Part shown: in pieces, positions 49,925 to 64,000 of the stretch | Layout: each line of letters opens with the position of its first letter | Position numbering within the stretch: position 1 is the first letter of the stretch | Position numbers and translations under genes: made by a program | DNA from: a virus | Virus record (IMG/VR): IMGVR_UViG_3300043395_003072 | Span: 94,463-158,462 of that record | Length of the DNA: 64,000 bases | Reading direction: 5' to 3' (one strand) | The notes under the pieces: model-generated | The model's input: the letters and a program-made list of their open reading frames with translations, nothing else | What the model was told of the DNA's origin: nothing | Database searches by the model: none

Positions 49925-50021
49925 GGTGTTATTTTTATAGTGGTTGGCACGATCCAAAAGATCCGTGCCCACCCGGGGGGAGTAAGCCCCTGGCCGCTGT
50001 GGCCTATAGCTTGAACACACC

Positions 50022-50387
50022 GTGGGTATGCCCCACAGAAAGTTCTGTGATCACATCATGATCAAGAACAAGCTCGAGAGTATTAACAACAATCCCTGGA
50101 ACTTCCGCAAGGTCTTCAAGATCGAGTGGTGTAACCGCAATGAGGGCGTCTCTGGTTGGGCTTCGGCCCCTGCCAACATCCCTGACTTCAACGGCAGCAC
50201 CGACGACCATGAGGACTTGGGTATCATCCTCGCCCTCCAGCGCCACTATGGCACTGCGCAGGTCGACGGGATGTATGTCTCGCCTATGACGGCCCGTTGG
50301 GCCGAGGCGTGCACGGTGGGTTTCGTGGTGGATGGGTGGCGCTACGGGCAGGCCTTCGGGCTCGCCTGGCGCGTCCGCGTCCGCTGA
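50022..50387 (+). CDS. Hypothetical protein (first plus-strand gene; start uncertain)
   Basis: GC3-rich codon bias like its neighbours; ends at the start of the repeated spacer. Confidence 0.6.
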   Translation: MGMPHRKFCDHIMIKNKLESINNNPWNFRKVFKIEWCNRNEGVSGWASAPANIPDFNGSTDDHEDLGIILALQRHYGTAQVDGMYVSPMTARWAEACTVGFVVDGWRYGQAFGLAWRVRVR

Positions 50388-50498
50388 GTCGCTGTTGTCT
50401 GATCTCTAGCCGCTTAGGCGGCTCAAAAATAAAGTCCTAGGGTCACCATACCTAGGCCGAAACGCCGTGAGGCGTCCGGGGAAAGCCCCGCTGATGAG
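50381..50498 (+). repeat. ~115-bp intergenic repeat, copy 1 (copy 2 at 51758-51872)
   Basis: Near-identical run CCGCTGAGTCG.TGTTGTCTG...CTAGCCGCTTAGGCGGCTCAAAAATAAAGTCCTAGG...GCTGATGAG. Confidence 0.9.
50434..50498 (+). ncRNA. Hammerhead ribozyme HH1 (type II-like permutation)
   Basis: Hairpin CCUAGG/CCUAGG, then CC-GAAA (50459), stem III CGCC-GUGA-GGCG, UC (predicted cut after 50476), stem I CGGGG-AAAG-CCCCG, CUGAUGA-G. Confidence 0.88.
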
Positions 50499-50620
50499 AA
50501 TTCACTTGTCAGAATGCCCTTTGCAACAGGACACACACGACCATCATAGCAGCTATCAAGCTGTGTCGTGCAGTGTATGAGACTGGGCTCACCTCCCTCC
50601 CGTGCAAAAAGGAGAATCCA

Positions 50621-50881
50621 ATGCACAATCAGTTTGATCCAGAGAATCGCCAGTGGTGCGGGGAGTGGCCCATCGTGGCCATCCCCGCACCTGAGCCTGA
50701 GCCCACCCCCGAGCCCACGCCTGACCCTGAGCCTGGTATGGTCACGCGTGTTGAGCGCGTGGCCCAGGAAGGGCTTTCTATTGGTGAGATGATTGCTGAG
50801 GGGGTCTCCCTATGGACGCTTGCGTCTTGGGGGATTGCCATCATTGCGAACCTCGCTCGAAAGTTCCGTAAGAAGAACTAA
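50621..50881 (+). CDS. Small protein with a Pro/Glu repeat and a C-terminal hydrophobic helix
   Basis: AAGGAG Shine-Dalgarno before ATG 50621. Contains PEPEPTPEPTPDPEP and ends LWTLASWGIAIIANLARKFRKKN. Confidence 0.65.
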   Translation: MHNQFDPENRQWCGEWPIVAIPAPEPEPTPEPTPDPEPGMVTRVERVAQEGLSIGEMIAEGVSLWTLASWGIAIIANLARKFRKKN

Positions 50882-50886
50882 GAGCA

Positions 50887-51006
50887 CCGCTGCCAGGTGT
50901 AACTCCTGGCGAAACGACTTCCTCTCGCTTCAAGTGAGAGGTTTGCTGTGAGGTGGAATCACAGCTGTAATAGTTGTCAGGGCTTAGCCCTCTGACGATC
51001 CAGCGG
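50887..51006 (+). ncRNA. Hammerhead ribozyme HH2 (variant with branched stem III and an outer closing stem)
   Basis: GCCAGG/CCUGGC hairpin, GAAA (50911), stem III CGACU/AGUUG enclosing two hairpins, GUC (cut after 50978), stem I AGGGC-UUA-GCCCU, CUGACGA. Flanks CCGCU/AGCGG pair. Confidence 0.75.
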
Positions 51007-51224
51007 GGTCCAATCAGCATTCTTTGCTCCAAATACCTGCGTTTGTTTGCTTTTCGTTAAAAGCAGGGATATGGGAGTCACACCCATTGCAAGTGGCCAC
51101 TCCTTTCTGAGTCGTAGTCCAGTCGCTACTTATGCGGCGGTACAGTTGATGCCTCAATCAACCCTGTTACTCTGAAATCAGGTTAAAATTCAGAATCTAC
51201 TAATACGCATAAAAGGAGTATCCT

Positions 51225-51764
51225 ATGCGTAATCTTGTGAAGATGATCCTCGTGAACAACCTCCTCGTCTCTGAGACCCAGGTCACCCAGGGGCTCTTCG
51301 AGGAGGTGATGGGGTGGAACCCCACTCGCAAGGTCAGCCGCTTCTCGCCCCCCACGCCTCACCGCTGTGTAAGGGACGTGTCGTGGTTTCAGTGCGTACG
51401 CTTCTGCAACAAGCTGAGCGACCTTGAGGGGTTGCAGCGAGCTTATTTGCTTGATGAGACTGCAGAGGTAGCCTTTACAATTGAGGGTGCCAATGGCTAC
51501 AGGTTGCCCACAGCAGCCGAGGCCAAGGTCTTCGCCAACAAACTCCTCGTAGCAGTTGCCAATAGGAACTCAGAGTTCCTTCTGGATGTGCATAATCACC
51601 GCCTCAATGACCTTGGCCTCAAGGGCGTGGGTAGTTCATGGGAGTGGACTATCCAAGATGCGGATAGAAAGTTAGATAAAATTGCCACCTGCGACTCTGA
51701 GGCCAGAGGGTGGTTTATGGGTGGTTCAGTGGCGGTGACCTTCCGGGTCGTCCGCTCCCGCTGA
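51225..51764 (+). CDS. FGE-sulfatase (formylglycine-generating enzyme-like, C-type lectin fold) domain protein
   Basis: Contains ETQVTQGLF..VMG.NP, VSWFQCVRFCNKLS..EGL, GYRLPTAAE, WEW and FRVVR; AAGGAG Shine-Dalgarno. Confidence 0.8.
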   Translation: MRNLVKMILVNNLLVSETQVTQGLFEEVMGWNPTRKVSRFSPPTPHRCVRDVSWFQCVRFCNKLSDLEGLQRAYLLDETAEVAFTIEGANGYRLPTAAEAKVFANKLLVAVANRNSEFLLDVHNHRLNDLGLKGVGSSWEWTIQDADRKLDKIATCDSEARGWFMGGSVAVTFRVVRSR

Positions 51765-51808
51765 GTCGTTGTTGTCTGGTCTAGCCGCTTAGGCGGCTCA
51801 AAAATAAA

Positions 51809-51872
51809 GTCCTAGGGTCACCATACCTAGGCCGAAACGCCGTGAGGCGTCCGGGGAAGCCCTGCTGATGAG
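51809..51872 (+). ncRNA. Hammerhead ribozyme HH3
   Basis: Same layout as HH1. GAAA at 51834, GUC cut after 51851, stem I CGGGG-AAG-CCCUG (G-U wobble), CUGAUGAG. Confidence 0.88.
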
Positions 51873-51945
51873 CACCCGCACATAAACGTTACAGGCTGCG
51901 TTTACTGTGAACCTTCCAAGCCTAAAGAGGAGGAGTTCCTCAAAA

Positions 51946-52626
51946 GTGAAAGGCTGCGACTTTACTGCAGCCGAGAAGTGTCCCGTGTTCGTGGGAGACA
52001 TCCACGCTCGTCCAGAGCTGTTGGAAGCCGTCCTCCGCGATTACGGGGATTTGAGGGTCATCCTGCTAGGTGATATCCTCGACGGCCCCGGTGGGGCTCG
52101 TGGCTCTGCTGAGCTTGTCAAGATGGCGCGTAAAAACGCCGTTGAGATGGTGCTCGGCAACCATGAGCTGTATCCGATCTTCGCCACAAGCCGGCAACAG
52201 CTGGCCCAGTGGTGGGGTGAGGATCCTCATGGGAAGACCGCCGAGAGGATCTGGCAGGAGTGGATGGCGATCCACTCTCTCCTTGATGATGAGGACATGG
52301 CATGGCTTCGGTCGTGCCCCCTCTATCTGAGAGGCGAGGGCTGGATTGCCGTTCACGCAAAGACCCTTCCCATCCTTCCTGCCCAGTACGTGACTGGTGC
52401 TCCGACCCAAGCTCAGATCGAGCTTGTGGATCACACGGAGAGCACCCCGTTCTGGGCTGAGGCGTACGATGGCCGTTTCGGCCATGCGTACTTTGGGCAT
52501 ACCCGCCTTTCCAAGGTGGGGCGCGCCCAGTGGCCTCATGCGACCCTGCTCGACTGGGACGCAAAGAAGGATGGTACCTGTGGGGTGTGTGTGCTCGGCG
52601 GCACACCCCACGCGCTTCTCGGCTAA
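51946..52626 (+). CDS. Calcineurin-like metallophosphoesterase (PPP / lambda-phosphatase / ApaH-like)
   Basis: Contains GDIH, GDILDG, GNHE, VHA and FGHT motifs. GTG start at 51946 follows AGGAGG. Confidence 0.85.
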   Translation: MKGCDFTAAEKCPVFVGDIHARPELLEAVLRDYGDLRVILLGDILDGPGGARGSAELVKMARKNAVEMVLGNHELYPIFATSRQQLAQWWGEDPHGKTAERIWQEWMAIHSLLDDEDMAWLRSCPLYLRGEGWIAVHAKTLPILPAQYVTGAPTQAQIELVDHTESTPFWAEAYDGRFGHAYFGHTRLSKVGRAQWPHATLLDWDAKKDGTCGVCVLGGTPHALLG

Positions 52627-52729
52627 CGCCGAGTTCCCGAACCCTTAAGCTTTTGGGTTAATAAAGCAACAGCCCGACCCCCTAGAGTGGTCACTTCCTG
52701 AGCATGAAGGAAAAAACTGCTCACCAAAC

Positions 52730-52812
52730 CCTAGGGTTCACCATACCTAGGTCGAAACCATGCTGGGGGGGTTACACCCCCAGGCATGGTCCGGGGAAGC
52801 CCCGCTGATGAG
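52730..52812 (+). ncRNA. Hammerhead ribozyme HH4
   Basis: CCUAGG hairpin, UC-GAAA (52754), long stem III CCAUGC-UGGGGG...CCCCCA-G-GCAUGG, GUC cut after 52791, stem I CGGGG-AAG-CCCCG, CUGAUGAG. Confidence 0.88.
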
Positions 52813-52860
52813 TCAAGCTCACAGATTAAAAAACAAACCGCGCACACAAGGAGAATTCCA

Positions 52861-53556
52861 ATGCGCAACCTCATCGTCACCGCCCTCGCGATCCGCGAGT
52901 TCACCCCCACCGCCCCCATTGCTTGCTCCCTCGCCCTCCCTGCCCACACCGATACCACCACCATCGTGGAGCCCCCTGCCCCCGACATGGCGCCCATCTC
53001 TACCCCGCCGCTCATCGACATCTCGATGGGCAACATCGTAGAGCAGATGCGGGCCTTTGACCCGCCGCTCTGGGTGCGTCCCGGGGTGGCGGGGTTTAGG
53101 GTGGTGTGGGGTGAGGTCACGCCCCCAGTCCCCCTCGAGGTGGAGGTCGGGGGTGTTGGGGGTTGCCTCCCTCACGTGGCGGGGGTGTGGGACGGGAAGC
53201 GGATCAGGGTAGCCACGTGGGGGAAGAAGGGGAACAAACAGTTCCACCGCGGCGGACTGGAGGGCACGATAGTGCATGAATTTGCCCACGTACTTCAATG
53301 GTATGGGGCCGGCAACAGCATCGGTGATTGGTACTATACCAACCACCACGATGAGCAATCCCACTTGTTCAAGAAGTGGGAAAGTGTCTTGTCCCCGTTC
53401 TACGCGGGGTCGCACGAGGCGGAAAGCACCGCCGAAGTGTTCAGGGTGTTAAAGGGGTACCGTTCCGATGAGGAGTGGGAGAACAACTCCCAACTCCTGA
53501 AGGAATGGGAAGGTTTCCTTAGGGGGAACGAAGTGTTCAAGCACTTCTTCCCCTAG
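52861..53556 (+). CDS. Putative zinc metallopeptidase
   Basis: TIVHEFAHVL (HExxH) with a downstream Y.....E.TAE; AAGGAG Shine-Dalgarno before ATG 52861. Confidence 0.65.
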   Translation: MRNLIVTALAIREFTPTAPIACSLALPAHTDTTTIVEPPAPDMAPISTPPLIDISMGNIVEQMRAFDPPLWVRPGVAGFRVVWGEVTPPVPLEVEVGGVGGCLPHVAGVWDGKRIRVATWGKKGNKQFHRGGLEGTIVHEFAHVLQWYGAGNSIGDWYYTNHHDEQSHLFKKWESVLSPFYAGSHEAESTAEVFRVLKGYRSDEEWENNSQLLKEWEGFLRGNEVFKHFFP

Positions 53557-53589
53557 TCTTCCGACCTGAAGAGGTCATTAAATATACTA

Positions 53590-53660
53590 GTCCTGGGGTC
53601 ACCATACCCAGGCCGAAACGCCTCCCTTTTGGGGGCGTCCCGGGAAGCCCGGCTGATGAG
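53590..53660 (+). ncRNA. Hammerhead ribozyme HH5
   Basis: Covarying hairpin CCUGGG/CCCAGG, CC-GAAA (53615), stem III CGCCUCC/GGGGGCG, GUC cut after 53639, covarying stem I CCGGG-AAG-CCCGG, CUGAUGAG. Confidence 0.9.
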
Positions 53661-53714
53661 AGTTGTAATTCAGCACTCCTTCAGATTCAACCCACCTGCA
53701 TACAGGAGAATCCT

Positions 53715-55007
53715 ATGCAGACTAAGTCCTCGGCGGCTACCACCGCCCGCCCTAACACCCCCACCCTCCGCGACGCGGAGCAGGCCGCGCTCGCCCGGTG
53801 GAGGGCGCTGCCCACCACCACCGCCACCACCCCCACCACCCCCACCCAGGCCGCCGCGCTGCCCCCCGCTGCGCCGTCCACGGAGACCACCATGACCATG
53901 GCACAGATCGTTGGTCGCATCACCCTCAAGGTGAGCGCCAAGGAGCGCCCCGCCCGCCTCGCCCCGCCCCAGCGTGCCACCCGCCGCACCCCCCTCACCC
54001 GCGCCGCCCTCGCCACCACTCTCCCCATGCTCGAGACGCGCTACGAGCGCGTTGCGGGCACCCTGCGCCTCAACGACAAAGGGGGTGTCGTTTCGCGCCA
54101 CCCCGCTCTCACCCCCTGGGTGACTTTCGACCCGCAGTCGCGGGATTACAGCATCGATCGCTACATCGACGGCCCCGGGCTCCTCGCCCTCAGCCGCAAG
54201 GTGGGCGCCAAGGTGGTGTTCGCCAACGCCACCTTTACCGCCCTCGCCGCCCTTACCCCTGAGCAGCGCGCCCTGCGCCGCGCCGCCCGCCGCGTCGCCC
54301 GCCGCACCGAGGCCGAGCGCCTCGACGCCGAGCGCACCGCCCACGCCCTCGCCGCCGCCCACGCCCGCGCCGCCGCCCTCGAGGAGGAGGCCCAGCGCCG
54401 CGCCGAGCGCGCCCTGGCCCGCAACACCCTCAAGGCGGAGCGCACCGCCCTCGCCCTCGACCTCGCCGGCGAGATGGGCGTGACCACCGCCGCCGCCCGC
54501 CGCGCCCTCCTCGACGCGGACTGGAGCATAGAGGACGCGCGCAACGCCCTTGAGCTCGCCGCCATGAAGGCCGAGGAGCGCAAGGAGCGCAAGGAGGAGC
54601 GCAAGGAGGCCGCCGACGCCCTCGCCGCGGCCCCCGCGAAGGTAAAGACCGCCCTGAAGGGCATCGCGAATCAGGCCCTCAAGGGCCGCATCGCCCTGGT
54701 CCTCGACAGCCTCAAGGGCCGCCTGCTCGGGGTGGCCCTCAAGGCAGCCCTCGCCGCCGCCGCCACCACCCCCGACGCCAACACCACCCTCACCACCGAC
54801 CGCCTCCAGTGCATCATCGCCAGCGCTGTCGACGAGGAGCGCATCCGCCGCGATCTCGCGGTGGAGCGCAAGCTCAAGATGAAGGCGGCCATCAAGGCGC
54901 GCAGCGAGGAGGTCACCAACCTCTTCGCCCGCGCCAAGGGGGGCGACAAGGGTGTGCCTCAGGCACTCACCCTCGCCATCACCCTCGCCCGCAAGGTGCG
55001 TGGCTAA
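53715..55007 (+). CDS. Ala/Arg-rich protein with a UBA/EF-Ts-N-like helical domain
   Basis: 430 aa with an AGGAG Shine-Dalgarno. EMGVTTAAARRALLDADWSIEDARNAL matches the UBA-like pattern. Codons are extremely C-ending. Confidence 0.6.
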   Translation: MQTKSSAATTARPNTPTLRDAEQAALARWRALPTTTATTPTTPTQAAALPPAAPSTETTMTMAQIVGRITLKVSAKERPARLAPPQRATRRTPLTRAALATTLPMLETRYERVAGTLRLNDKGGVVSRHPALTPWVTFDPQSRDYSIDRYIDGPGLLALSRKVGAKVVFANATFTALAALTPEQRALRRAARRVARRTEAERLDAERTAHALAAAHARAAALEEEAQRRAERALARNTLKAERTALALDLAGEMGVTTAAARRALLDADWSIEDARNALELAAMKAEERKERKEERKEAADALAAAPAKVKTALKGIANQALKGRIALVLDSLKGRLLGVALKAALAAAATTPDANTTLTTDRLQCIIASAVDEERIRRDLAVERKLKMKAAIKARSEEVTNLFARAKGGDKGVPQALTLAITLARKVRG

Positions 55008-55008
55008 G

Positions 55009-58000
55009 ATGTCTGCTGAGAACAACAGCAACATCACCGCCACCCCCGCCAACGAGCAGGAGAGCACGATGACCACCACCACCACCACCACTACCGCCGC
55101 CCCGGCCACTCCCGCCACCGAGCAGGAGCAGGTTGTGCACACGGACAACGTCACCCTCCCCAAGGCCACCCCGTGGGATGCTTCCTTCCTTGAGGCTATC
55201 AAGGACCGGGACTTCCCTGAGGCGTTTAAGACCTTGGTGCTGGCGCACTTCAAGGAGCGCCAGCTGCACCCCATGTTGTGCTGGGGCCACCATTCCACCA
55301 AGCAGCTTGAGGAGTTCATCTCCAACCAGTTGCCCTTGGACAGCGCCTTGCGCGCGTTCCAGCTGGACACCTGGGGCAGCCGCAGCTTCATTGGGCGGCA
55401 CTTTTCGCCGCTCTTCAAGGCTCGCTGGGAGTCCCTCAAGAAGAGCCAGGAGGAGGAGGAGATGGCTGAGATCGAGCGCCTCAACAAGCTGGAGGAGGTT
55501 AAGCAGGCCGAGCGTGACGCCGATAAGGCCCAGCGCAAGGCTGAGCGTGAGGCTCAGCGTGAGGCCGAGAAGGCTCAGCGCAAGGCTCAGCGTGAGGCTC
55601 AGCGTGAGGCCGAGAAGGCTCCCAAGAAGCCTTGGAGGAATGTGCCAAACCTCCACCTCGACCGCACCGAGCTGTCCACCTACACGGTGGAGCAGCTCAA
55701 GGCTCTGGCGGTCATCAACGCGACCGCCCTCCTTGTGCAGATCGACAGCACCCTCAGCCTCAAGCTTGTGCAGACTGAGGATGGCTTGGTCATGCCCGAG
55801 AGTCCTGCGAAGCCCACGCAGATCATGAAGGGCTTCGGGACCGCCAAGAAGGCGGACCTCATCAAGCTCCTCAACTGGATGGGCTCAGGCGACATGAGCA
55901 TGCGCCCGGCAGGAGCCACCAGTGACCTCGTCAAGGCGGTTGCCCAAAACTACCGCCCTGAGGAGGAGAAGCCGGAGGAGTCCCTCGCTGAGGTGATGGT
56001 GATCGGGAAGGCCGAGAGGCAGGAGAGCGCGAAGGCCAAGAGGCGTCGCCGCGAAAGCATTGTGCAGCTTGAGGAGGCCATCAAGGCTTTCCCCGCGCAG
56101 GCTGACGCCATCAAGCCCATCAAGGAGATGGTCTCGGCGGGCGGGGATACCCCGACCCACATTGACCTCGAGCAGGTTGACCGCGCCAGCAAGGCGTTGG
56201 AGGGTAACACCCTGGAGCAGGTCAGCTCTCAGGTGGGAGCCACCTACTGCCTGACGCTCCAGGTCTACCCGACCAACGAGCGCACCGCTCATGGCGATGG
56301 CAACCATGCCCAGGTCATGAAGGTGGCCTTGGTGCCCAGTGTCGCCTGGCGCCAAGGTGCCAGCTTCTTGGTCAACCAGTTTAACAACTGGATTGGCCTT
56401 GAGCAGAACCAGGACTTGGCGAAGAAGCTCAATGCCAAGCCGTTTAAGGTCGAGGTGGACGATTTCATTTTCGTCCAAAACAAGACCGACGAGAACGGCA
56501 ACGAGTCCGCCATCCCTGAGCTCAACAGGGTATTGACGAAGCTCGGGTATTTGGCGGTCACGCCGGGCTTCTGGCTCAAGAAGAACCACCCCTACTGCGC
56601 GTGGATCAAGAGCGTTTTCAAGACGAACTTGGTTGTGCGTGGGCGTGCCCGCAGCATCGCTACCACCCCGTATCAGGCTCAGCTGTCTTTCCAGCTTGAG
56701 CGTGATGCCGAGGGCAATGTCATTGGTGTGAGCAACACCCCGGTGTTCGTCGCCGACCTCACGAAGTACGGCCATGTGGGTCTTGATGGTAGCAATATCA
56801 TCAGCAAGAACCTCATGGGTACGGGGTGGACGCCGGGGGTTGTCGCGCAGATTCGCCTGCACACCAACCCCTACATCGCCCAGTCGTACGGCGTGCAGGG
56901 CAAGGGGCTGGCTCGCGCCCACAATGCCTGGGCGGTGCACACCCAGAGCGGGTGGGTCATTAAGACCGACTTCTATGCGAAGAAGTCGATCATTGACCAG
57001 GACGACAACCTCTCCCCCGCCGAGAAGGAGAGCGCCATCAAGGCGTTGAAGGCAGAGTACCTGCCCGCAATCATCCTTCACTATGACAACGTGAAGGGCG
57101 CGGGCTCGAAGGAGCTCGAGAAGGCGGTCAAGGGCAAGACCACCCTCTTGAACCTCAACCAGTGGGGCATGGAGGATGGTTATGAGTCTGCCCTCTTCGG
57201 TGGGGTGATCGCCGAGGATTACCGCGGTCAGAGCACCACGAGCTGGCAGAACGGCCAGCTCTACAGCCCCGAGGTGCTCGACGCCAACAAGGCCTACATC
57301 CACAAGCTCCTCGACACTGCCTTCAAGAAGCTGGCGGTTTCGGGAGAGAGTGCACTCTCCGATGTTGAGGGGTTTGATGTTGGCCTGCGGCAGCTTATCG
57401 CTGCCCAGCAGGCTAGCAACCACAAGTGGGTGACGTCGGTTGCTTTTGGTGCAAACCAGAAGTGGCCCACGTTCTACTGCGAGCAGATGGATATGCCCGC
57501 AGGCTTTGTGGTCGCAGGCTCCAAGATCGGTGGGAAGGCTGACAAGCTGGCAATCACTGGCCAGCCTCAGCTCTACCACCAGTGCTTGGTGGTCGCCAAC
57601 CGTCTCAGCTGGGACGATGTCAACGCCGTCATCGAGCACCTTGATGGCGAAAAGGTCACCCTCACTGAGCTCCAGGTTAAGTGGCTGGCAGCTTGGGGTA
57701 AGATGGGGGTGTCCGATGATGATATCCTCCATCGCCTTCGCTGGATGGCTGGTGGCTTCGTGCCCAATGGCACTGAGTCGCTGATCTGGGTCTCTACTGT
57801 AGACCAGAAAACCATGCAGCGAGATTCGGACGGTGACCGCCTCTTGGTGCTTTGGGATAAGGATATGATTAAGCTTGTTGAGGATCACAACAAGTCGATC
57901 GAGGCCCTCCTTAAGCCCCACCTGGAGGTGGACAGGAAGACCGCTCTGGATGGCGACCAGAAGTACAAGGACTTGGCCAATGGCGATTGGGGCAACCCAG

Positions 58001-61000
58001 ATATCGCTGAGGAGGCCAATGAGTACATCTGCGCGCCAAACGCAGGTCAGGGGCCCACGGGCGAGTTGGTTAACGCCAACAGCGCTGTGTTGAACCACTT
58101 TGTGTGGCAGCAGGTCAACGGCACCTGGCAGCCCGAGTCAGACAAGATGCACCACATCTTGAAGCTTTACGGTTTCATGTGCCTCTTGATCCAATGCTCC
58201 ATTGACCGCCAGAAAAAGGTCTGGGCGGTCCCGGCTCTGTGCCAGTGGCTGGCGCTGGACTTATATAGTGGAGAGATCACGTCCTACGAAACCCTTGCTC
58301 CTGGTGTGGAGAAGTACAGCTTCTTCATTCAGACTAAGAGCGGCGACAAGTCCATCCGCGAGATCCCTGTGCGTACCGGCTACGCCGATATGTTCAACAG
58401 GAGCATCATCAAGCCTTGGTTGGCAATGATGATCAACTTGGTGAATGCCAAGAGCACCTGTTTGAACGACACCACTGGGGCTTCTTTCCAGAAGGTGTTT
58501 AAGGATGTCGCTCAGGCGTTCTTGGACTCCTCGAACAACCCTGGCGGGTTTGACTGGGCGGCGATCGCTCAGGCAATCGGTGCGCAGGTCTCGGCCGAGG
58601 AGCTCAAGAGCAAGTGGGTTTTCCCCGACGAGCTCTACAGCTTTAAGGATCAGGCCTCGCTCTACGTGCCTGTTCCCAAGGCTGCCCCGGGGATCAAGTG
58701 GCTCACCACCAAGGCCACCGAGGTCTACTCGGGCTGGCGGAAGGAGAAGGGTATTTCCAACTACCCCTCCAGGCAGCTCTTCTTGAAGTTGAGCGGCCTG
58801 ACTGCCGACTGGATGGCAAAGCCCAATGCCCACTTTGGCGACGATTCCAGCGCGCTGGACTTCGTCAGGGAGTTCTCGAGCATGATGGCCCGTTCTGTCG
58901 CACAGAACCTGGCTAGCGTCGCCAACAGCGAGATCAAGCAGGGGCGCGGCGGCGACACCGCCCGAGAGGCGTTGAAGGAGATCCGTGCCGCGTTGACTGT
59001 CTTTGATGTGTACCACCCCGTCAGCAAGCTTATCAAGTATGCTGTGGGGAGGGACGCCAAGCCGGCCAACGTGAGCATGGCCTGTCTCGGTCTCATCCGT
59101 ATGTGGACCAAGTCTTGGTTGACCTCAGCGGCGACAAACTCCCTGATCGAGTACTTCTCTGTACTTAATCTTTACGGGCAGATCGACGCCAACTTCGACT
59201 GGTCTGTCCAGGAGGAGACTGAAGCGACTCGGTCCGTGAAGGAGGAGGTCACCCCCATTGAGGTCGCGAAGAACGTTCTTCGCAACTTGGAGGTGGTCTG
59301 CAACGAGGAGAATAAAACCCTCCTCATGCAGATGATCGATGACGTCAATAGCGACGTCAGCCTTGCCACCCTTGTGGAGAAGAACCGCCTTGCCGCTCAG
59401 CTTCACGAGTACAGCATCGCGGCTGAGCCCACTGGTGCCGAGCGCATCCTCACCGAGTGGTTGCCTGCGCTGGAGCTGGCCCAGGACAACATCGATATGG
59501 CCACAGAGAGGCGTGAGCTTTTCCTGGATGATAGCATATTCCAGGACTTCTGTGGTCTTGTCGGGGATCCCAGCATCGTCACCGAGAGGGCGTTCCTGGA
59601 TTTTGCCCAGAGGAAGATCCTTCCCGTGTTGAGCAGGAAGCTGCTCAGCCTGACGAAGAGCCAGGCCAACCTGGCGAACCAGGCTGACACCTGCATGCTC
59701 AACTGGTACCGCCTTGTGGCGAACCAGGCGGGGTGGGACGCCACGAAGCTTGTGAATAATCTCGCAGGCTTCACCAAGCTGTACCTGCCGCACATGCTCC
59801 CTCGCACCCGCGAGATTGTGGATCTCATGACCCCCTTTGTGCAGGCCTATCGCACGAAGGTGTGGATCCTTGACATGTACGGCAAGGTCGGGTCTCTTGG
59901 TACGAGCGATCCGCAGGTCCACAATCAGCGGATGGTGACCATGGTCGAGGAGGCGGTCTTCAACATGAAGCACGTCTTCGACCCCACCAGTGGCACTCTC
60001 CGCAAGGAGAAGACGATCAAGAGTCGTCCCGAGGTGGCAGTGAGCCCGGCGCTTCGTGCCAAGTTCACCTGGGAGCTCCTTTCTGAGGGGCTTAGCCATT
60101 ACGGTCTCCACACCACTCGGCGCCCGGCGTTCATCGATACCAAGGATGGTAAGAAGATGATCGTCACTCGCACCGACCGGTGGGTTTACATGGACTCCAA
60201 GATGCCCCGCAACTTGGACATCCTGAATAAGGCCTGCGAGCAGGGTCTGGTCATCGGCCACATCTTCAACCCTGACTGGTTGAAGGTGATGTTGGAGTCG
60301 GTCAAAAACCAGCTCAATGTCCCGGAGCTCTCGGCTGATGAGAAGGTGAACCTCGAGGCGAAGAAAGACGTGCTTGAGTACGCTCTCGCAGACGTGCTTA
60401 GCATGTACGTCATTGAGGACACCTCCCCTCGCACCCACGAGAGGCAGCTACTCGGCTCGCTGGCCTTCCCTGCCTGGTACGGTGGTCGGGATAAGTGCTT
60501 CCAGCACACCCCCTTTGACAGCTACCGCACCAGCGCTCACCGCTCGGTGTGGCGCTTCATCATGAGCGTCATGCCCTTGCAGGCTGAGTTTCAGGACAAG
60601 GCAGAGCTCTACGACCGCCTGACTGGCTGCCAGACGCTTAACGCGTCGAACAGACGTGGGTTTGCGGTCAGTGAGAACACTGACTGGGTGAACGCCCTCA
60701 GCACCAGCTCTTGGGGTACGAGCACGGCCAACTCGGGCTACTCCCGGGCTCCTCGGGACTTCAACACCACCCCCGGCGACATGTTCATCAATGGAACTTG
60801 GTCGAAGCCCAATCGCAGCCCTGCTGCGGAGAACCTCGGGATGCTCGACATCCAGGTCGGGAACATCTCGTTCCAGATGAGGACCGACGCTTACGTCTCT
60901 AATGCGGGCTGCACCTTCCAGGTCAGCTCTCGCTCCAGGGAAGATTCGGAGAACTGGGTCGAGAATGCCCCCTCCGGGTTTGGGGAGTCCAAGGGAATCC

Positions 61001-61368
61001 GCGAGATGACCATCATGGCGATGAGGTCGAATGTGGTGACTGGCCGCATCAACGGCCTTGAGGTGAGCAACATTGTTGCTCAGCGCATCGCGGAGCTCCG
61101 TTACCAGGACATCAAGGGCTGCGTGGTCTCCGAGGTGGACTTCGAGAAGTTCAAGACGGAGGCGATCATCGGCTGCTGGGGTGCCACAAACGCCCTCGAC
61201 AGCATCGTCGTCTCCAAGATGTCTGACGACAGCACCTGGGGTCGCTTCAGCGCTAAGACGAGCACGGCCTGGCGCGACTTTGCCAAGGGCAACAATAGGA
61301 GCTTCAAGATCCTGCCCCCGGTGAGCTCGCGCTTTTACCAGCTCCTCTTCGCCGCGAAGGGTAACTGA
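55009..61368 (+). CDS. Single-subunit two-barrel RNA polymerase (YonO / cellular RdRP-like)
   Basis: Ordered motifs DGSNIIS, QIR...KG, RDSDGDRLLVLWD (57823-57837), GELVN and SIDRQK mirror the cRdRP motifs DG.G.IS, FQIR..G.KG, DLDGD...V.WD, G.I.N and AVD.AK. Start is ATG 55009, or 55069 which has a Shine-Dalgarno. Confidence 0.8.
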   Translation: MSAENNSNITATPANEQESTMTTTTTTTTAAPATPATEQEQVVHTDNVTLPKATPWDASFLEAIKDRDFPEAFKTLVLAHFKERQLHPMLCWGHHSTKQLEEFISNQLPLDSALRAFQLDTWGSRSFIGRHFSPLFKARWESLKKSQEEEEMAEIERLNKLEEVKQAERDADKAQRKAEREAQREAEKAQRKAQREAQREAEKAPKKPWRNVPNLHLDRTELSTYTVEQLKALAVINATALLVQIDSTLSLKLVQTEDGLVMPESPAKPTQIMKGFGTAKKADLIKLLNWMGSGDMSMRPAGATSDLVKAVAQNYRPEEEKPEESLAEVMVIGKAERQESAKAKRRRRESIVQLEEAIKAFPAQADAIKPIKEMVSAGGDTPTHIDLEQVDRASKALEGNTLEQVSSQVGATYCLTLQVYPTNERTAHGDGNHAQVMKVALVPSVAWRQGASFLVNQFNNWIGLEQNQDLAKKLNAKPFKVEVDDFIFVQNKTDENGNESAIPELNRVLTKLGYLAVTPGFWLKKNHPYCAWIKSVFKTNLVVRGRARSIATTPYQAQLSFQLERDAEGNVIGVSNTPVFVADLTKYGHVGLDGSNIISKNLMGTGWTPGVVAQIRLHTNPYIAQSYGVQGKGLARAHNAWAVHTQSGWVIKTDFYAKKSIIDQDDNLSPAEKESAIKALKAEYLPAIILHYDNVKGAGSKELEKAVKGKTTLLNLNQWGMEDGYESALFGGVIAEDYRGQSTTSWQNGQLYSPEVLDANKAYIHKLLDTAFKKLAVSGESALSDVEGFDVGLRQLIAAQQASNHKWVTSVAFGANQKWPTFYCEQMDMPAGFVVAGSKIGGKADKLAITGQPQLYHQCLVVANRLSWDDVNAVIEHLDGEKVTLTELQVKWLAAWGKMGVSDDDILHRLRWMAGGFVPNGTESLIWVSTVDQKTMQRDSDGDRLLVLWDKDMIKLVEDHNKSIEALLKPHLEVDRKTALDGDQKYKDLANGDWGNPDIAEEANEYICAPNAGQGPTGELVNANSAVLNHFVWQQVNGTWQPESDKMHHILKLYGFMCLLIQCSIDRQKKVWAVPALCQWLALDLYSGEITSYETLAPGVEKYSFFIQTKSGDKSIREIPVRTGYADMFNRSIIKPWLAMMINLVNAKSTCLNDTTGASFQKVFKDVAQAFLDSSNNPGGFDWAAIAQAIGAQVSAEELKSKWVFPDELYSFKDQASLYVPVPKAAPGIKWLTTKATEVYSGWRKEKGISNYPSRQLFLKLSGLTADWMAKPNAHFGDDSSALDFVREFSSMMARSVAQNLASVANSEIKQGRGGDTAREALKEIRAALTVFDVYHPVSKLIKYAVGRDAKPANVSMACLGLIRMWTKSWLTSAATNSLIEYFSVLNLYGQIDANFDWSVQEETEATRSVKEEVTPIEVAKNVLRNLEVVCNEENKTLLMQMIDDVNSDVSLATLVEKNRLAAQLHEYSIAAEPTGAERILTEWLPALELAQDNIDMATERRELFLDDSIFQDFCGLVGDPSIVTERAFLDFAQRKILPVLSRKLLSLTKSQANLANQADTCMLNWYRLVANQAGWDATKLVNNLAGFTKLYLPHMLPRTREIVDLMTPFVQAYRTKVWILDMYGKVGSLGTSDPQVHNQRMVTMVEEAVFNMKHVFDPTSGTLRKEKTIKSRPEVAVSPALRAKFTWELLSEGLSHYGLHTTRRPAFIDTKDGKKMIVTRTDRWVYMDSKMPRNLDILNKACEQGLVIGHIFNPDWLKVMLESVKNQLNVPELSADEKVNLEAKKDVLEYALADVLSMYVIEDTSPRTHERQLLGSLAFPAWYGGRDKCFQHTPFDSYRTSAHRSVWRFIMSVMPLQAEFQDKAELYDRLTGCQTLNASNRRGFAVSENTDWVNALSTSSWGTSTANSGYSRAPRDFNTTPGDMFINGTWSKPNRSPAAENLGMLDIQVGNISFQMRTDAYVSNAGCTFQVSSRSREDSENWVENAPSGFGESKGIREMTIMAMRSNVVTGRINGLEVSNIVAQRIAELRYQDIKGCVVSEVDFEKFKTEAIIGCWGATNALDSIVVSKMSDDSTWGRFSAKTSTAWRDFAKGNNRSFKILPPVSSRFYQLLFAAKGN
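55525..55620 (+). repeat. In-frame 45-bp tandem duplication in the polymerase N-terminus
   Basis: Two near-identical units (55525-55569 and 55570-55614) encoding KAQRKA(E/Q)REAQREAE. Confidence 0.85.
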
Positions 61369-61370
61369 GC

Positions 61371-62150
61371 ATGGAGATCAAGAGCATGAACTCTGTCCTG
61401 GCCCTCCTCCCGGCCTCTGACCGGAAGAACTTCGTCGCGAAGCTGATGAAGCTTAGCGTCGATGCGACGGAGCTGTGCAACTTCCTCAACCTCTTTCCTG
61501 AGGATGAGCGCGTCGAGGCTCTGAGCAGCTTCCTTGACGGGCAGGTGGAGAAGCCCGCTTCGGCTGGCAACACCACCTACAACGGCACCGTTAACCGGTA
61601 CGAGATCTCTGGCGGTAGCAATAACCGTATCGAGATCTCGTACGCTGGTGGCGGGTATGCCCGGCAGAGCTCCTCCACCTCAACGCCCAAGCAGGCTGCT
61701 GACCGCAGCGCTTGGAACGTCAAGGGTGAGCTCGTCTACCTCAAGGATGAGTGGGTGAGCGTCATCAAGAGCCTCATCGGCGACGGGAAGGCTCTCAACC
61801 TCTCCGCCGTTGAGGGCCTGAAGTTCTTGGCCGCCCACAAGGGTGAGGTCTGGGGTTCGATCAACCCGAGCAACTTCATGTATGTGTCGCAGGCCGCTAC
61901 CAGCATTGATGGCTTGGTTTGCGTTCCTCACACGGATGTGAAGTACGCTTCCGGTCCCGCCTGCTTCCTCACCATGAAGGCGGAGCTCTATGATGCTGCC
62001 AAGGCTGCTGGCTTGATCGTGGGCGGGGACAGCGTTGCTTCTCCGGCTGCGCCGGCCCCCAGCGCTGCTGCTCCCGCAACCAAGCCCGCCTCCGATCCCG
62101 TAGCTTCGGTGCAGAACTCTCAGGACCTCAACCTCGGTACTGCCTGGTAG
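61371..62150 (+). CDS. Hypothetical protein coupled to the RNA polymerase gene
   Basis: 259 aa, starts 2 nt after the polymerase stop, has the same codon bias and an Ala/Pro-rich tail. Confidence 0.7.
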   Translation: MEIKSMNSVLALLPASDRKNFVAKLMKLSVDATELCNFLNLFPEDERVEALSSFLDGQVEKPASAGNTTYNGTVNRYEISGGSNNRIEISYAGGGYARQSSSTSTPKQAADRSAWNVKGELVYLKDEWVSVIKSLIGDGKALNLSAVEGLKFLAAHKGEVWGSINPSNFMYVSQAATSIDGLVCVPHTDVKYASGPACFLTMKAELYDAAKAAGLIVGGDSVASPAAPAPSAAAPATKPASDPVASVQNSQDLNLGTAW

Positions 62151-62156
62151 ATCTAA

Positions 62157-62268
62157 ACTGAGCTGACTCGGCACTCCTTTCGAGGGGTGCCGAAATGGCC
62201 TCAGCTTCGGCTGAGGCCATCGGGGACTAAGTCCCCCTGACGACCCGCTTGCGGGGAGTCAGCTCAGT
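62157..62268 (+). ncRNA. Hammerhead ribozyme HH6 (five-way junction variant)
   Basis: 13-bp outer stem ACUGAGCUGACUC/GAGUCAGCUCAGU; hairpin GGCACUCCU-UUCG-AGGGGUGCC; GAAA (62192); stem III UGGCCUCAGC-UUCG-GCUGAGGCCA; AUC cut after 62221; stem I GGGGAC-UAA-GUCCCC; CUGACGA; hairpin CCCG-CUUG-CGGG. Confidence 0.8.
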
Positions 62269-62525
62269 CTTCTTTTAACTTATGGCTTTTCTGATTCGAA
62301 GCACAAAATGCAGCATCGACACTCCGCCACCGCTCCGCGGTGAGAGTGTTGCTACGCAACACTCCGCCACAGCCTCCGGCCGTGGCGTGCGTAGCGCCAC
62401 GGGCGCTACGGCAGCTGTGCCACAGGCAACAGACATACATTGTATGTCGATGGCGTCGTTGATGACAGAACGGCGCCACTGCAAGGACTCTCCTTGTAGT
62501 GCCAAGTCTCTTGAAAGGAGCACCT

Positions 62526-62849: not shown

Positions 62850-62857
62850 GAAGCGGC

Positions 62858-64000
62858 CGTCCCACCACCATGGGGACGTTAATTGTCATGGTTTTCTCGT
62901 TTTGTTTCCTTTTAAGGAGACGAGACGAGACGAGGAAAGCGTGCAATGCACACCTCGTAAAAAAAGTGGAATACCGTCGTGACGGAAGCCGTAAGGCTCG
63001 AGTCGCCTGTCGAGCTGTCTCCTGGGCAGCGAAACGGAAATGCCCACCAGTGGCAGGCCGAAGCGTGCTCCCGCTTCGGTCAATCTGGCCTCCTGCTCGC
63101 CGTGCAGGAGGGTCATCTGGCTAGACTATAGCCAGCATGATTAACCAAGGAGGCCCACCGAGTGGGACTTCGGCGAACCACTTAGTGGGCCTCGAAACCC
63201 TTTACCAGGAGGGGAGACTTCGGTCTGAATCCTGGTCCTCTGTAGCCGTGCAGGGGAGTCACTTCATCAGTGATCGAACGAGGGCCCACTTAAGTGGGAC
63301 TACGGCAACCACCTCGGTGGGCCCTCAGCTGTGCTGTCACACAGGATAAAAAACGGCAGGGTCCCCTCCAGGGGGACTTAAATAAAAACTGGCGGTGGTC
63401 TACCTGTATCGGTAGAGAAGCTGATTGCGCACCTAAGGGAACGAAAGGTGTGCGCCCAACAAGTGGGTACTCTCAACGCAAGTTGAGAGGGAACTGAATC
63501 AACGACTATACTAGTTATGTCGCTGATTGAAAGGATCGAGGGAGCTAAAGCTGTGCACAGCTATGCCCTGATGAACGAGGAGTAATTAACCTCAAGTAGT
63601 CGAAGTTGAGAGCCGCGCTGATGAGCGGCGAGACAACAGTCTGGAAAACTGTTGTCTTATACCCGTGGTTGATGGGCATCAAGTGGGGAGGATTTCTAAG
63701 TGCATGCTACTCCAAAGCATTGCTTAGTGAATATCTCCCTGCTGGAGGTGGGGTGTTTTGACACCTCACCTTTGGGCTCGCCAGTATCTAAACTGGCTGA
63801 GACTTGTGGCAGCGCGAACGCGAGCCCAAGCTAACCAAATCAACCTGGATGGAGACCTAAAAATCTCCTGTCGACGCCCTCATTGAGACGCCTCCACGTG
63901 GCGAGGGTGGAGCCCAGCGAAAGCTGCGGTACTAAGTCTCTGCATCGGGTGATCTTCGCAGAAGGTCATCTAGGTGCAACCGCGCAGGACGGATTTCCTG
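62858..64000 (+). ncRNA. Candidate large structured non-coding RNA (continues past the window end)
   Basis: About 1.15 kb with no ORF showing a Shine-Dalgarno site and the local codon bias. Nearly continuous hairpins, UNCG/GNRA loops and pseudoknots. Strand inferred from G-U pairs, tetraloops and context. Confidence 0.6.

Follow-up and report, generated by a model that had tools for sequence, protein, structure and literature searches.

Hammerhead ribozymes in clusters were reported from prophages in 2011, where multiple copies flank single genes or blocks of genes, processing into single-gene mRNAs was proposed, and three clusters were found to cleave (Perreault et al., 2011; PMC3088659). 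A 2019 review restated the mRNA-processing idea as unproven. We analyzed a 64,000-nucleotide (nt) stretch of viral DNA (the window; IMG/VR record IMGVR_UViG_3300043395_003072, positions 94,463 to 158,462), in which six hammerhead cores, H1 to H6, lie on the plus strand between the genes of an RNA polymerase block. This array works like the clustered phage hammerheads and belongs with them, a layout known since 2011: sense-strand hammerheads lie between genes, the gene content is variable, and the blocks are short. It differs from the prophage clusters in its host genome, that of a large tailed phage that encodes a two-barrel polymerase of its own, in having six to seven copies, and in a predicted variant build (compare PMC3088659). 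While the array alone is a known arrangement, the interesting part is the variant build together with a strand complementary to the core (the anti-core), both of which are well supported as conserved structures.

Canonical type II hammerheads (RF02276) share with these motifs the block order, the invariant core and the closed stems I and III. They have an open stem II of 3–5 base pairs (bp) and a loop I that mostly matches the 3′ tail, whereas the motifs here have 0–2 bp, a short loop I, a 5′ hairpin apparently serving as helix II, and the anti-core, and all score under the Rfam cut-off. In the non-circularly permuted hammerheads SGC, CSG and GCS, as here, connectivity is naturally rewired and the core is kept; the accompanying rule is that CUGANGA and the adjacent stems lie within 1–2 nt of each other in every known alignment (Eckert et al., 2023; PMC10085705). 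In the pseudoknot hammerhead structure, as here, all that is left of helix II is G10.1–C11.1, and another helix takes its place; there the substitute is a pseudoknot involving an additional stem-loop carried by helix I, with G10.1–C11.1 closing a loop after A9 (PMC11300833).

The six plus-strand cores described in an earlier, sequence-only reading of the window were borne out, each with the block order GAAA, stem III, NUC, stem I and CUGAYGA. The core elements CUGANGA, GAAA and NUH with an A15.1–U16.1 pair were present in 6/6 motifs. When recomputed, the predicted cuts (after 50476, 50978, 51851, 52791, 53639 and 62221) and the sizes of the fragments between them (502, 873, 940, 848 and 8582 nt) agreed exactly with those given before. 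A strict descriptor with a 5-bp minimum for both stem I and stem III yielded six matches on the plus strand and none on the minus strand of region 50001–62400, and a mean of 0.002 matches (maximum 1) on 1000 dinucleotide shuffles of that region, while type I and type III descriptors yielded no match across the genome. The structure search suggested in that reading recovered 6/6 motifs by descriptor, but the Rfam models scored all six under the cut-off, with a top score of 26 bits against a gathering score of 37 bits for RF02276. The latter gave weak scores to three copies, and an Rfam scan of the window returned a single Hammerhead_II match, H5, at 25.8 bits, also under the cut-off. RAGATH-1-hammerhead (RF03152), which we take to be the pseudoknot variant, gave no match in the genome at E ≤ 10; a pseudoknot-containing hammerhead was reportedly described in Weinberg 2015.

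The set of six holds for the window, but a seventh core, H7, was found on the plus strand of L002 (9915–10066), an overlapping assembly that is 99.98% identical and spans the 2.15-kb gap separating the end of the window from the start of the genome. H7 is of form B with a three-way branched stem III. Two tRNAs lie in the same gap. The virus record is probably circularly permuted and incomplete. The motifs in the window, which fall into two builds (forms A and B) that differ at helix II, were as follows, with predicted cuts and pairings:

50434–50512, plus strand: H1, form A; 5′ helix-II hairpin 50434–50457, C11.1 at 50458, GAAA at 50459, cut after 50476, stem I 50477–50490, core 50491–50497, G10.1 at 50498, anti-core 50505–50512.
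50887–51006, plus strand: H2, form B; outer helix P0 of 50887–50891 with 51002–51006, helix-II hairpin 50892–50910 closed by G–C11.1, branched stem III, cut after 50978, core 50992–50998, next base U.
51809–51894, plus strand: H3, form A; cut after 51851, anti-core weak and distant.
52728–52824, plus strand: H4, form A; cut after 52791, pair −2:11.2 (see below) A–U instead of G–C.
53590–53673, plus strand: H5, form A; cut after 53639.
62157–62268, plus strand: H6, form B with a five-way junction; 13-bp P0 of 62157–62169 with 62256–62268, helix-II hairpin 62170–62191, cut after 62221, core 62237–62243, hairpin P4 62244–62255 immediately after A9.

The normal open stem II, formed by the strand after CUGAYGA with the strand before GAAA, had 1 bp in H1, H3, H4 and H5 and 0 bp in H2 and H6. 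The cores had been called complete, which holds only if a 5′ hairpin replaces helix II and fails for a normal stem II. Relatives gathered through polymerase homologues and DNA patterns provided 34 ribozyme copies in total. The open stem II spanned 0–2 bp in this family compared to 3–5 bp in 17 canonical type II copies from Streptomyces phages, and a stable hairpin ended 0–2 nt 5′ of GAAA in all 34 copies. This separate upstream hairpin would supply helix II, leaving all three helices closed. A G–C pair for helix II was available in 6/6 motifs, either in a nicked helix (form A) or on an unlinked strand (form B).

In form A (H1, H3, H4 and H5), A9 is followed by an invariant G (G10.1) able to pair with C11.1, and the base at −2, two positions upstream of the hairpin stem, covaries with 11.2, freeing C11.1 for G10.1. 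The −2:11.2 pair was G–C in 10 copies of the 17-copy form A alignment, A–U in 4 and unpaired as aligned in 3, and the three unpaired cells represented different bulge lengths on inspection. Pairing was seen in 97.9% of the cells of this alignment, exceeding all 500 shuffles and all slid controls, and 8 pairs were changed on both sides, counts that are inflated by the relatedness of the sequences. Stems I and III also covaried (3/5 and 2/4 pairs changed on both sides), and the compensatory stem changes reported earlier are real. The sequence of stem III was freely replaced among copies while the core stayed invariant; the loop sequences of form A were conserved, and loop I had 3–4 nt in all six motifs. 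The data suggest that helix II of form A consists of one native pair, G10.1–C11.1, extended across the nick by the 5′ hairpin, and we infer that this helix stacks on A9–G12.

The form B set comprised eight copies (H2, H6, H7, L001c, L001d, L034b, L038c and L052a). The base after A9 was U or C in 8/8 copies and never G, and in a constrained model of each copy C11.1 paired with a G of the 5′ hairpin, closing it. The outer helix P0, plus hairpin P4 in the H6-type copies, was inserted between A9 and 10.1. Homologues were found for H2 (L034b, L038c and L001c) and for H6 (H7, L001d, L013a and L052b). L013a and L052b formed a five-way junction as in H6 from unlike sequence, with P0 and P4 covarying between the two, and helix II covaried between H6 and L001d. 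The integrity of block C in the scheme of Eckert et al. (A9 to N10.1 within 1–2 nt) is retained by form A and broken by form B (H2 and H6), which, unlike that scheme, puts one or two helices between A9 and 10.1 in a core without a pseudoknot. A loopless open stem II built from the 5′ and 3′ termini, as in type II, was absent from the six copies, and so was the loop I–3′ tail pseudoknot that is common, though not universal, in type II, loop I being 3–4 nt. The build of forms A and B is a member of neither the canonical type II, the pseudoknot nor the non-circular forms, and a literature search for this topology, which covered neither Weinberg 2015 nor the alignments of Perreault Dataset S1, found nothing. 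If form B cleaves, a stated rule of hammerhead architecture is broken, and a class of natural ribozymes goes unnoticed in descriptor and Rfam searches because none reaches the cut-off.

The same motifs could be read as ordinary type II hammerheads with a stem II of 0–1 bp, the 5′ hairpin and the anti-core being unrelated end protectors outside the catalytic fold. Their sequence order is that of type II, to which the weak RF02276 scores of three copies add; a 1-bp stem II and a U10.1–U11.1 mismatch are both known to be active, and no loop–loop complementarity was found. This reading nevertheless seems unlikely, as the distance between the hairpin and GAAA is always 0–2 nt, the pair that the hairpin makes with 11.2 shows covariation, C11.1 of form B lies inside the hairpin with the base after A9 paired in P4, and the canonical copies have neither feature.

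The anti-core lies 8–30 nt 3′ of CUGANGA. An exact UCAG was found 3′ of the core in 21/29 distinct copies compared to 2.8 expected, the anti-core base opposite N7 mostly tracked N7, and the RNAalifold consensus included the anti-core hairpin, while the anti-core was present in 0/17 canonical type II copies. A minus-strand partner ribozyme was considered as the source of UCAG and rejected, since the minus strand is without any core. When folding was constrained to leave the core free, the energy cost increased in most form A copies once the anti-core had been transcribed, by about 3–8 kcal/mol beyond +20 nt in several of them (H4, L001a, L012b, L038a and L038b). It dropped to 0.4–2.3 kcal/mol in H6 and H7, where P0, the 5′ strand of which is core-like, takes up the anti-core. 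The minimum-energy fold of H1, H4 and H5 had the core paired, and many copies carried an upstream CUGA-like decoy able to capture the anti-core. The 3′ products of H1, H4, H5 and H6 folded into two hairpins, stem I and one more, with the 5′ base not free; the product folds of H2 and H3 were less clear.

The conservation of the anti-core, the folding energies, the paired cores of H1, H4 and H5 and the upstream decoys would also suit regulated switches, in which the anti-core sets a default off state, cutting occurs when the polymerase pauses, when a ribosome or protein binds, or with one particular phage polymerase, and the ratio of polycistronic to cut forms is set by conditions. We regard this as quite unlikely: H2 and H3 are nearly without an anti-core, H6 is shielded by P0, a conserved site for a ligand or protein was not found, and the same conservation is explained by a purely post-cleavage role. 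The anti-core is a concrete, mutable element for asking why phages carry self-cleaving ribozymes, whether for fixed processing or for tuned, partial cutting.

We favor, with somewhat better than even confidence in the full model, working hammerheads of variant build and type II order that cut the plus-strand RNA between the genes of the polymerase block; that most of the six cleave is likely, and the purpose of cutting is less certain than cleavage. The 5′ hairpin would stack in the helix II position, and G12/G8 chemistry would cut after NUC to leave a 2′,3′-cyclic phosphate and a 5′-OH. In form A, each helix would be a hairpin inside one product with 1 bp between the products, which would part immediately. 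The anti-core would then pair with CUGANGA, blocking re-ligation and leaving a new 5′ end of two stacked hairpins without a free base, and the 3′ end of the upstream product would likewise close in two hairpins. Since the anti-core of form A would compete once transcribed, cutting would be mostly co-transcriptional and maybe partial. In form B of the H6 type, P0 would keep the anti-core away but tether the products. The outcome would be gene-sized mRNAs whose ends are each protected behind two hairpins, and a ribozyme with products parting behind double-hairpin ends is a potentially useful insulator part. More tentatively, at a level of belief that falls a little short of even, the locus may represent a natural topology beyond the six recognised permutations. 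All three helices would be closed hairpins, and the base of helix II would be the point of entry and exit for the chain, which in form B means between A9 and 10.1. An anti-core would make cutting irreversible or time-limited, a 5′ decoy would free this strand, and the build would mark a family of large aquatic phages in which ribozymes and terminators are exchangeable as gene punctuation.

Several points weigh against the favored model. The anti-core hairpins, at about −5 to −9 kcal/mol, could hold form A mostly off, and the anti-core is weak in H2, H3 and L001c. Secondary-structure energies leave tertiary folding out. The 13-bp P0 of H6 would tether both products after cutting. The copies are related, form B representing about four lineages, so that the counts overstate independence. 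Watson–Crick kissing of loops I and II, attractive by eye, was not supported, since cognate pairs did no better than permuted ones (P = 0.37), and there is no Watson–Crick signal for the stem I–stem II tertiary contact that fast hammerheads need. A hammerhead with a 1-bp stem II has been published as active, but that example depended on a pseudoknot that is impossible for a loop I of 3–4 nt. Four relatives (L010, L011, L015 and L054) were without such a core in the DNA examined.

Gene-sized pieces from polycistronic RNA, the role assigned in the sequence-only reading, are the most likely outcome of cutting; the idea is not novel, having been published and tested in 2011 (PMC3088659). In the same reading, the cuts might also stand in for RNase III on one long early transcript and might protect the pieces from RNase E/J. 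That interpretation, which is partly supported, also omits two features, the anti-core, with which cutting is maybe partial or time-limited, and the 13-bp tether of the H6 products. Four matching spacers of the ribozyme-free L011 contained terminator-like hairpins accompanied by U runs, and ribozyme and terminator therefore look like alternative gene punctuation. In T7, the early transcript is punctuated by RNase III, a protein enzyme that leaves 5′-monophosphate and 3′-OH ends. A multi-gene RNA that includes a phage polymerase gene is punctuated in both cases, a likeness that is an analogy only.

Ends bearing a 2′,3′-cyclic phosphate and a 5′-OH have the chemistry joined by RtcB. On that ground, the purpose of the cuts might be to let gene-sized RNAs be re-ligated or circularised, with either the ribozyme or host RtcB doing the joining, and 13 bp keep the H6 products together. 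We consider this very improbable, as RtcB was not found in the assembled genome, form A products share 1 bp while the anti-core dismantles the core, and no spliced or circular products were found when sought in the prophage clusters (PMC3088659).

Copies adjoined polymerases down to 31% identity. L001, the polymerase of which is 60% identical, had four copies in matching spacers; L029 and L046 had five each, L012 (polymerase 31%) four, L052 two, and L013 and L055 one each. Ribozyme presence was scattered over the polymerase tree, L014 being left out of this comparison for too short a flank. The flanks of H1 and H3 were 94% identical over 127 nt, and the genes between ribozymes varied among relatives. 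L046 has structural genes close to those of the window phage, and its similarity to the window stops just past a ribozyme, followed by a polymerase of ~22% identity. The repeated spacers appear to behave also as exchange points for gene cassettes. That the motifs are mainly repeated cassette ends kept by recombination or selfishness, with cleavage incidental or lost in some copies, would fit the H1/H3 flanks, the differing genes and the L046 junction but is highly doubtful given an invariant core despite covarying stems and a freely replaced stem III, and given forms A and B, unlike in sequence with the same core, which indicate selection on catalysis. Near-identical upstream DNA followed by very distant polymerases (~22% identity; different clades) was observed in L046 (12248–19216) and between L052 and L055, suggesting whole-gene swaps of the polymerase among close phages. 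The name Polynucleobacter on L038 and L046 is a bin label and not host evidence. Both L010 (~55–110) and L011 (~1500–1560), which are hammerhead-free, have a conserved CUGACGA-bearing hairpin 5′ of the polymerase gene, and it fits none of the hammerhead orders tried.

Canonical type II arrays were also detected between small genes of Streptomyces phages, with eight copies in 7 kb of R4 (L048, NC_019414), six in Paedore (L049) and at least three in Wentworth (L047). These arrays are unannotated, several of their motifs have one extra U after CUGANGA, and a literature search found no mention of them. They provide a ready test system in cultured phages.

The window is the terminal part of a virus record 158,462 nt long, in which the minus strand encodes terminase, major head and tail sheath proteins. 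The coding strand switches at ~49.9 kb, and G+C climbs from ~35% to ~60%; the layout of the genes leads us to infer an early status for the plus-strand block, which contains the following genes:

50022–50387, plus strand: first open reading frame (ORF) of the cluster, 5′ of H1; no family match.
50621–50881, plus strand: ORF of 86 amino acids (aa) between H1 and H2; homologue in L046, 79% identical.
51225–51764, plus strand: FGE-sulfatase-like domain protein between H2 and H3; Pfam E 1e-4, just under the cut-off.
51946–52626, plus strand: calcineurin-like metallophosphoesterase between H3 and H4.
52861–53556, plus strand: 231-aa ORF with an HEXXH motif between H4 and H5; no family match.
53715–55007, plus strand: 430-aa protein; UBA/EF-Ts-N-like helical bundle at residues 235–300 (predicted models, TM 0.7–0.85).
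55009–61368, plus strand: RNA polymerase of ~2120 aa, single-chain two-barrel; invariant DxDGD motif.
61371–62150, plus strand: 259-aa gene directly after the polymerase.

For the ORF that ends at 53556, the most likely start is 52861, downstream of a ribosome-binding site, so that H4 would leave it uncut. The polymerase fold was nearest to P74-26 gp62, P23-45 gp64 and QDE-1; a PDB sequence search with the polymerase gave no match, and no relatives were found in cultured phages or in the IMG/VR or JGI pattern scan. A gene of comparable size to the 259-aa gene follows the polymerase in every relative. Some calcineurin-fold enzymes open 2′,3′-cyclic phosphates, and the calcineurin-like phosphoesterase gene (51946–52626) sits within the ribozyme array. 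Scanning the cluster for sigma-70 promoters and for terminators gave no excess compared to shuffles, and neither internal promoters nor a single transcript are therefore supported. One aquatic metatranscriptome contained 5% of the sequence words searched for.

Downstream of the array, two further elements were recorded:

62850–63875, plus strand: structured, apparently non-coding DNA of ~1 kb; no Rfam match.
63876–63940, plus strand: hepatitis delta virus (HDV)-like double-pseudoknot ribozyme candidate; RF02682 E 0.024, below the cut-off.

In the HDV-like candidate, P1 (6 bp), P1.1, P2, P3 and P4 are all pairable, and similar motifs were found in L012 (11288), L013 (~9950) and L015 (9261). Cleavage by the candidate would fall where the ~1-kb non-coding stretch ends on its 3′ side, and a long gene-free stretch occurs at the matching place in L001, L010–L013, L015 and L052. 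The spacer after the partner gene of the polymerase contains a repeated ACTCCG, at 62321 and 62361 of the window and in every relative checked (L001, L010–L013, L015, L052, L054 and L055), which is possibly a phage promoter or binding site.

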